Shown one piece after another: positions 47,527 through 47,807 of a stretch of DNA of 64,000 nt. The notes under the pieces are model-generated. The model ran no database searches. It was not told the DNA's origin and worked only from the letters and a program-made list of their open reading frames with translations. Position 1 is the first letter of the stretch; the number at the start of each line of letters is the position of its first letter. The stretch is from Escherichia coli (GTDB lineage: Bacteria; Pseudomonadota; Gammaproteobacteria; Enterobacterales; Enterobacteriaceae), in NCBI RefSeq assembly GCF_003334765.1, contig NZ_QOWT01000001.1; one strand, written 5' to 3'. A program made the position numbers and the translations under genes.

Positions 47527-47745
47527 CTGAACGCTGCACTTTTTTACCTATCTCTTAAATAGTCATTTTCAATACAACTTTTTCTTTTTCATCACAGCCT
47601 TAATGCTCCTTAGATAATAACCATTATCTAACAATGAGATACCTAATTCTTAGCGTGCCTGTTAACCCACACATCAGGGTCTATGCTTATTAAAAGCAGG
47701 CAAAAAGCATGTTTTACGGTAAAGCCCCTGCGTTTGCTGGGTTGA

Positions 47746-47764
47746 ACTGATAATCATTATCACT
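47746..47764 (+). promoter_or_regulatory. Fur box in sufA promoter
   Basis: TGATAATCATTATCAC closely matches the Fur consensus; ~45 bp upstream of sufA ATG. Confidence 0.65.
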
Positions 47765-47807
47765 AACATGCTGTTATACGCTGAAAGCGATGAAGTGAGG
47801 TAAATCG

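Follow-up and report, generated by a model that had tools for sequence, protein, structure and literature searches.

A conserved Fur operator in the sufABCDSE promoter region of Escherichia coli, with a candidate sigma-S-like element upstream

The 281 bp between positions 47527 and 47807 of the DNA studied here are, with a probability of roughly 95%, the control region of the Escherichia coli sufABCDSE operon, which comprises a sigma-70 promoter (P1) with a Fur operator in its spacer. The suf promoter found here is real, strongly conserved and already well described in the literature, and control of its K-12 counterpart, the sufA promoter, by Fur, IscR, OxyR and IHF is established. We analyzed this region within a stretch of 64,000 nucleotides of E. 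coli DNA (the window), to which all coordinates refer unless they are given relative to the P1 start; the features discussed are collected in Table 1. On its + strand the window carries, in this order, ydiJ, menI, ydiH, the sRNA gene rydB, sufABCDSE and ldtE. Alignment of the 547-bp ydiH-sufA spacer plus the ATG showed 100% identity to E. coli K-12 MG1655, so that published work on the K-12 sufA promoter is valid here base for base, and the spacer occurs in nearly every complete E. coli genome (5422 of 5426). The first-pass annotation had described the 280 bp in front of sufA as AT-rich, and this is borne out by a G+C content of 37.4% at 47527-47807 as against 49.4% for the window, which places the interval at the 4.3rd percentile of 281-nt windows.

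Table 1. Positions of features in and around the suf control region (window coordinates; positions relative to the P1 start in parentheses)
Feature	Position	Strand	Basis or remark
rydB sRNA gene	47414-47486	+	Rfam RF00118, 81.6 bits, E 2e-19; K-12 annotation
Terminator-like hairpin	47481-47527	+	RNA fold; 17-bp interrupted stem at 47481-47519 plus T-rich tail
OxyR-type block	about 47537-47582 (-239 to -194)	.	13/20 consensus positions and cross-genus conservation
IHF-type site	47620-47649	.	Core TAACAATGAGATA at 47629-47641 (-147 to -135)
Near-invariant block CAGGGTCTATGCTTATTAAAAG	47675-47696 (-101 to -80)	+	Column identity at least 95%
IscR type-2 site AAAGCCCCTGCGTTTGCTGGGTTGAA	47721-47746 (-55 to -30)	+	Consensus match; overlaps -35
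-35 hexamer TTGAAC, P1	47742-47747	+	Placed from start; mean identity 83% in 80 species
Fur operator, 19-mer ACTGATAATCATTATCACT	47746-47764	.	Consensus, matrix, published model, conservation
-10 hexamer TAACAT, P1	47764-47769	+	Placed from start; 99% identity in 80 species
sufA P1 transcription start (A)	47776	+	Inferred from published mutant numbering
Shine-Dalgarno GAGGT	47797-47801	+	6 nt before ATG; kept across genera
sufABCDSE operon	47808-53329	+	ORF list, K-12 annotation, overlaps read directly
sufA	47808-48176	+	
sufB	48185-49672	+	
sufC	49682-50428	+	
sufD	50403-51674	+	
sufS	51671-52891	+	
sufE	52904-53329	+	

The Fur box that had been annotated just upstream of sufA, TGATAATCATTATCAC, lies on the + strand at 47748-47763, 45 nt ahead of the sufA ATG. 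It contains a perfect 7-1-7 core (TGATAATCATTATCA, 47748-47762, -28 to -14) with 0/14 mismatches to the consensus TGATAATNATTATCA; matches to this consensus with two or fewer mismatches number three in the 64-kb window, against 0.26 expected by chance. The 19-bp Fur consensus GATAATGATAATCATTATC is matched at 16 of 19 positions on the minus strand. Scoring with a Fur matrix had been proposed as a test that could refute the box. We therefore built a symmetrized 19-bp matrix from 13 K-12 sites with footprint or gel-shift support (fhuA, fepA-fes, fepD-entS, entC, gpmA, yoeA, cir, exbB, ryhB, sodA, fecA, fecI and fhuF), leaving sufA out; the site coordinates were taken from Chen et al. (2007), and every site was where it was expected. 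By this matrix the box is present: the sufA 19-mer scores 19.0 bits, inside the range of the known sites (18.0-28.0 bits in leave-one-out scoring of the training set), and ranks second in the 64 kb. The best Fur scores of 50 shuffled windows averaged 11.8 bits with a top value of 18.6 bits, and none reached the sufA score. Further, the model of Chen et al. (2007), derived from 24 sites, gives the sufA site 21.3 bits, with three overlapping walkers forming a 31-bp cluster centered 53 nt before the ATG, that is at 47755, the center of the palindrome; the cluster stands 13th in their table of strong clusters, where it carries no footprint or gel-shift flag.

Other strong Fur-type sites in the window lie at 22595-22625 (centers 22616, 16.8 bits, and 22610, 16.4 bits) and at 57462-57480 (center 57471, 20.4 bits), and those centered on 22616 and 57471 are the other two of the three consensus matches; once coordinates are converted, they correspond to Fur clusters that Chen et al. 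(2007) predicted at ydiE (hemP) and upstream of ydhY. Within the OxyR-type block a weak Fur-like score of 10.7 bits is centered on 47564. We considered a second Fur site in the control region at the palindrome TAGATAAT-AACC-ATTATCTA (47611-47630) and rejected it: it scores only 10.2 bits, its arms are 4 nt apart where a Fur site has 1 nt, it does not persist outside Escherichia, and its right arm is part of the A/T tract of the IHF-type site.

We then compared the sufA upstream regions of 80 other Enterobacteriaceae species, ranging from Escherichia to Buttiauxella, Cedecea and Franconibacter. A Fur box with at most two mismatches is present in all 80 species, and in 76 its distance to the ATG is 53-56 nt; the box is perfect in 48 sequences, has one mismatch in 25 and two in 8. 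The most conserved stretch of the alignment is the Fur box (96% identity) together with the -10 hexamer (99%). In four divergent E. coli sequences that were compared, the Fur box, the -10 hexamer and the IscR half-sites are free of differences, all of which fall elsewhere, and one of the four has TTGTAC as its -35 hexamer. In Intestinirhabdus alba a G+C-rich palindromic insertion of ~100 nt, which looks like a REP or miniature element in the promoter, separates the Fur box and -10 region from the leader, so that the distance from Fur box to ATG grows to 151 nt.

The core promoter was placed from published mutants. A 2025 paper from the Kiley laboratory describes PsufA variants in which the Fur site is changed from -26ATA-24 to TAT, and others in which the IscR site carries a deletion of -56 to -51 or the substitution -50C>G. 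We place the P1 start at 47776 because this is the only position that gives ATA at -26 to -24 and C at -50; the leader is then 32 nt long. With the hexamers set from this start, the 16-mer at 47748-47763 fills the entire 16-nt spacer between -35 and -10. The published Fur-site mutation corresponds to 47750-47752, and Fur-site mutants and fur deletions are reported to derepress PsufA. P1 also has a C at -13 (CTAACAT, 47763-47769), a feature favored by sigma-S, so RpoS dependence of suf could run through P1.

For IscR, the room that had been postulated in this promoter is occupied by a type-2 site with 0 mismatches to AWARCCCYTSNGTTTGMNGKKKTKWA, where 0.01 such matches are expected by chance. 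Its half-sites, AAAGCCCC and GGGTTGAA, are conserved in the alignment and the center of the site is variable. Both published IscR-site mutants fall on the left half, and a review assigns a type-2 IscR site to the -35 region of sufA. The Fur site of 19 bp (-30 to -12) directly abuts the IscR site. A second perfect type-2 match in the window, ATAACCCTTCTGTTTGCTGGTGTTTA at 20884-20909, is, judging from K-12 gene order, probably at the promoter of ydiU, a known IscR target.

The room expected for OxyR and IHF exists in the form of two conserved blocks, at ~47537-47582 and 47620-47649, but the E. coli matches to both consensuses are weak, and placement of these sites rests mostly on cross-species conservation. 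In the upstream block, the OxyR-type elements CTAT (47548), ATAG (47559) and CAAT/CTAT (47570) follow one another at a spacing of 11 bp, one helical turn. Three of four elements of the OxyR consensus are recognizable and 13 of 20 positions agree, a score that only 18 window positions reach (both strands, palindromic); a search for the OxyR consensus with three or fewer mismatches gave no match. The block CTATC..AAATAG.CATT..CTATACATCTTT at 47546-47582 is kept across genera, many of which have CTAT where E. coli has CAAT. At the IHF-type site, the E. coli core agrees with the IHF core WATCAANNNNTTR at 7 of 9 positions, as often happens by chance, and the suf promoter region holds no exact IHF consensus; at the aligned position, a perfect IHF core, TATCAATnnATTG, is seen in many of the orthologues that were inspected. 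We take the sufA footprints to span -236 to -197 for OxyR and -156 to -127 for IHF. OxyR has been reported to bind far upstream of sufA and to require IHF for activation. These reports and footprint spans, beside conservation, enter into the assignment of the two blocks.

Further layers of suf control described in the literature are repression by NsrR and pairing of RyhB within sufB. No NsrR site could be placed in the promoter, the best 11-1-11 matches reaching 13-14 of 20 positions, and an NsrR half-site that fits at 9 of 11 positions by eye (AAAAGCATGTT, 47703-47713) was set aside because it is not conserved. In a published genomic SELEX data set the RpoH (sigma-32) holoenzyme gave a peak of intensity 5.1 between sufA and rydB, at about 47648 of the window (old K-12 coordinate 1,762,570); we saw no convincing or conserved sigma-32 promoter near this position.

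At the upstream end, the hairpin that the first-pass annotation had used to bound the control region does form a stable stem, but it lies directly 3' of rydB and does not belong to the control region of suf. The stem pairs GAAACCCTTAAG with CTTAAGGGTTTT around CTGTG-TCG-CACAG, has a moderate G+C content and is followed by the tail TTTTCTTATTT; a simple terminator scan made no call here, probably because the stem is interrupted. This hairpin, which falls outside the annotated 68-nt rydB RNA, probably ends rydB or read-through transcription and would insulate the suf promoter. rydB itself, which spans 47414-47481 by the mapped K-12 annotation and 47426-47486 by its Rfam match, is an upstream neighbor outside the suf promoter. 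It also precedes sufA in E. albertii, Citrobacter and Salmonella arizonae, and was not found in the scanned Enterobacter, Klebsiella, Kluyvera and other loci. Rfam returned no leader or riboswitch in the interval from the hairpin to sufA, rydB being its sole match.

Downstream, the operon is arranged as had been annotated, with a 26-nt overlap of sufC and sufD and an ATGA overlap of sufD and sufS at 51671-51674; as far as can be judged from sequence, these stop/start overlaps would be compatible with translational coupling of sufC, sufD and sufS. SufE differs from its K-12 counterpart by G50D (window 53051-53053), next to Cys51, which is presumably the sulfur-accepting cysteine. Only 13 of the 5426 complete E. 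coli genomes have an identical copy of the 63-nt stretch in which it lies. At 53282-53308, sufE also carries an in-frame tandem duplication of 9 bp, which gives IRAIRAIRA in place of the IRAIRA of K-12; strain H3 shares D50 with this strain but lacks the duplication. Each of four queries from the region (47261-47807, 47600-47663, 47717-47780 and 53250-53329) had two plasmid-record matches in the E. coli genome collection, which suggests that a couple of E. coli strains carry a copy of the suf region on a plasmid.

Between the IHF-type and IscR sites, the alignment contains a near-invariant block whose conservation exceeds that of the IscR site. Its core, CAGGGTCTATGCTTA at 47675-47689 (-101 to -87), is followed by (A/T)TAAAAG, and the block shows no dyad symmetry. 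GGTCTATGCTTA occurs exactly in 67 of 81 sequences and with one mismatch in the other 14, and the distance from the block to the Fur box is 68 nt in 73 of 81. In the window, TCTATGCTTAT departs from the sigma-S extended -10 consensus KCTAYRCTTAA at a single position (10 of 11 agree), with the hexamer TATGCT at 47683-47688; TCTATGCTTAA, present in 39 of 81 sequences, is an 11/11 match. A pattern of this type is expected 0.17 times in the window. The papers surveyed contain no description of the block. An ORF of 20 codons that begins within it (ATG 47684 to TGA 47746) stays open in only 47 of the 81 sequences and lacks its ATG in 5, and we consider it not coding. Readings of the block as a marbox, as a sigma-E, sigma-32 or sigma-54 element, or as an FNR, ArcA or CRP site were also rejected, none fitting the respective consensuses by eye.

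Because the control region is AT-rich (37% G+C), the palindrome in the P1 spacer might be read as a chance inverted repeat, or as a site for some other regulator; the weak Fur-like scores of 10.7 and 10.2 bits nearby show scores of the kind that AT-rich DNA inflates. However, the spacer palindrome is a perfect match where even those with up to two mismatches are expected only 0.26 times per 64 kb, its 19.0 bits exceed the shuffled maximum of 18.6, it is kept in 80/80 species whereas the flanking spacer DNA diverges, and mutants of the site are used as derepressed controls in published work. On present evidence a chance or non-Fur palindrome is effectively refuted, its odds being vanishingly small. 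Fur bound to this operator would repress P1 by occlusion, by anti-activation or by both. The contact between the Fur and IscR sites at about -30 suits a Fur that occludes RNA polymerase as well as one that competes with the activator. Fur might act mainly by anti-activation, keeping apo-IscR off the DNA with the polymerase block secondary, and two things speak for this: the operator abuts the IscR site, and cells without iscR are reported to show almost no suf expression under any condition, so that removal of IscR would be enough to silence the promoter. We think it rather unlikely that anti-activation predominates, since the box fits the -35/-10 spacer exactly, the classical geometry of occlusion; the two modes can coexist, and the computed data do not separate them.

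The near-invariant block may be a second, RpoS-dependent promoter or a protein-binding site. Our tentative proposal, which we put at clearly less than even odds, is that it is the extended -10 element of such a promoter (P2), with a start near 47695. TCTATGCTTA(A/T) fits KCTAYRCTTAA, completely in 39 of the 81 sequences and at 10 of 11 positions in the window, the block is asymmetric as a promoter element would be, and its conservation surpasses that of the IscR site. In E. coli O157:H7 EDL933, sufA is reported to be expressed 124-fold higher in the wild type than in an rpoS mutant, and in a Salmonella rpoS mutant sufA is reported to fall to 0.165-fold while the upstream gene ydiH is not reduced. 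An RpoS ChIP-mini peak, which could lie at P1 or at P2, has likewise been reported upstream of suf, with no RpoD peak called (Salmonella, NC_016856.1, 1,462,167-1,462,216). Together, the conserved sigma-S-like block and the reported RpoS dependence make a second RpoS-dependent promoter a reasonable hypothesis. By contrast, suf is missing from the table of in vitro RpoS-holoenzyme SELEX targets, the spacer giving an RpoH-holoenzyme peak instead, and suf is not mentioned in the main text and one supplement of a sigma-S ChIP-seq paper. Further, we saw no convincing -35 element for P2; RpoS could act at P1, given the C at -13 there; and the nearly constant distance to the Fur box, 68 nt in 73 of 81 sequences, would also suit a protein site working together with P1.

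Our analysis shows the elements of the promoter with their scores, relative positions and conservation, whereas the binding of each protein and its effect are taken from published work; on this basis we read the switching of the promoter as follows. When iron is available, Fe2+-Fur occupies the spacer, where it would block RNA polymerase and compete with the adjoining IscR site. When iron or Fe-S clusters are scarce, Fur is released and apo-IscR acts as activator at the -35 region. Under peroxide stress, oxidized OxyR bound ~215 bp upstream would add activation by way of an IHF bend at about -140.

The suf promoter is a textbook case in which iron through Fur, Fe-S status through IscR and peroxide through OxyR with IHF act on one promoter. 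Confirmation of the Fur box adds no new biology; the added value of this analysis is the phylogenetic footprint over 80 species, in which the strongest constraint falls on the Fur box with the -10 hexamer, the IscR half-sites, the OxyR-type block and the sigma-S-like block. If P2 is true, it would explain why suf depends strongly on RpoS in E. coli O157:H7 and Salmonella, and also why ChIP detects RpoS without RpoD upstream of suf in iron-replete cells, in which Fur would cover P1. RpoS is also reported to control the change from Isc to Suf, and P2 would in that case be a specific cis element for this control.

Compared with the K-12 sufAp promoter, which is controlled by Fur, IscR, OxyR, IHF and NsrR, the promoter described here agrees in Fur box, type-2 IscR site, start and gene order and shows no difference at all; sufE differs from that of MG1655, so the strain is not MG1655. 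The sufA operator resembles those of the entC, sodA, fhuF, gpmA and ryhB promoters in placing a 19-bp 9-1-9/7-1-7 operator over the core promoter, with similar scores. Several iron-uptake promoters have longer Fur clusters, with up to 12 walkers in the published model, whereas sufA has three walkers over 31 bp. Unlike classical Fur-repressed promoters, the sufA operator touches the site of an activator, IscR. The dps promoter is reportedly driven through OxyR during growth and through IHF together with sigma-S once stationary phase is reached, with one start serving both sigma factors. If the near-invariant block is indeed a sigma-S -10 element, suf would, by analogy with dps, combine OxyR, IHF and sigma-S; unlike dps, it would have its sigma-S-like element 81 bp upstream of the P1 start.
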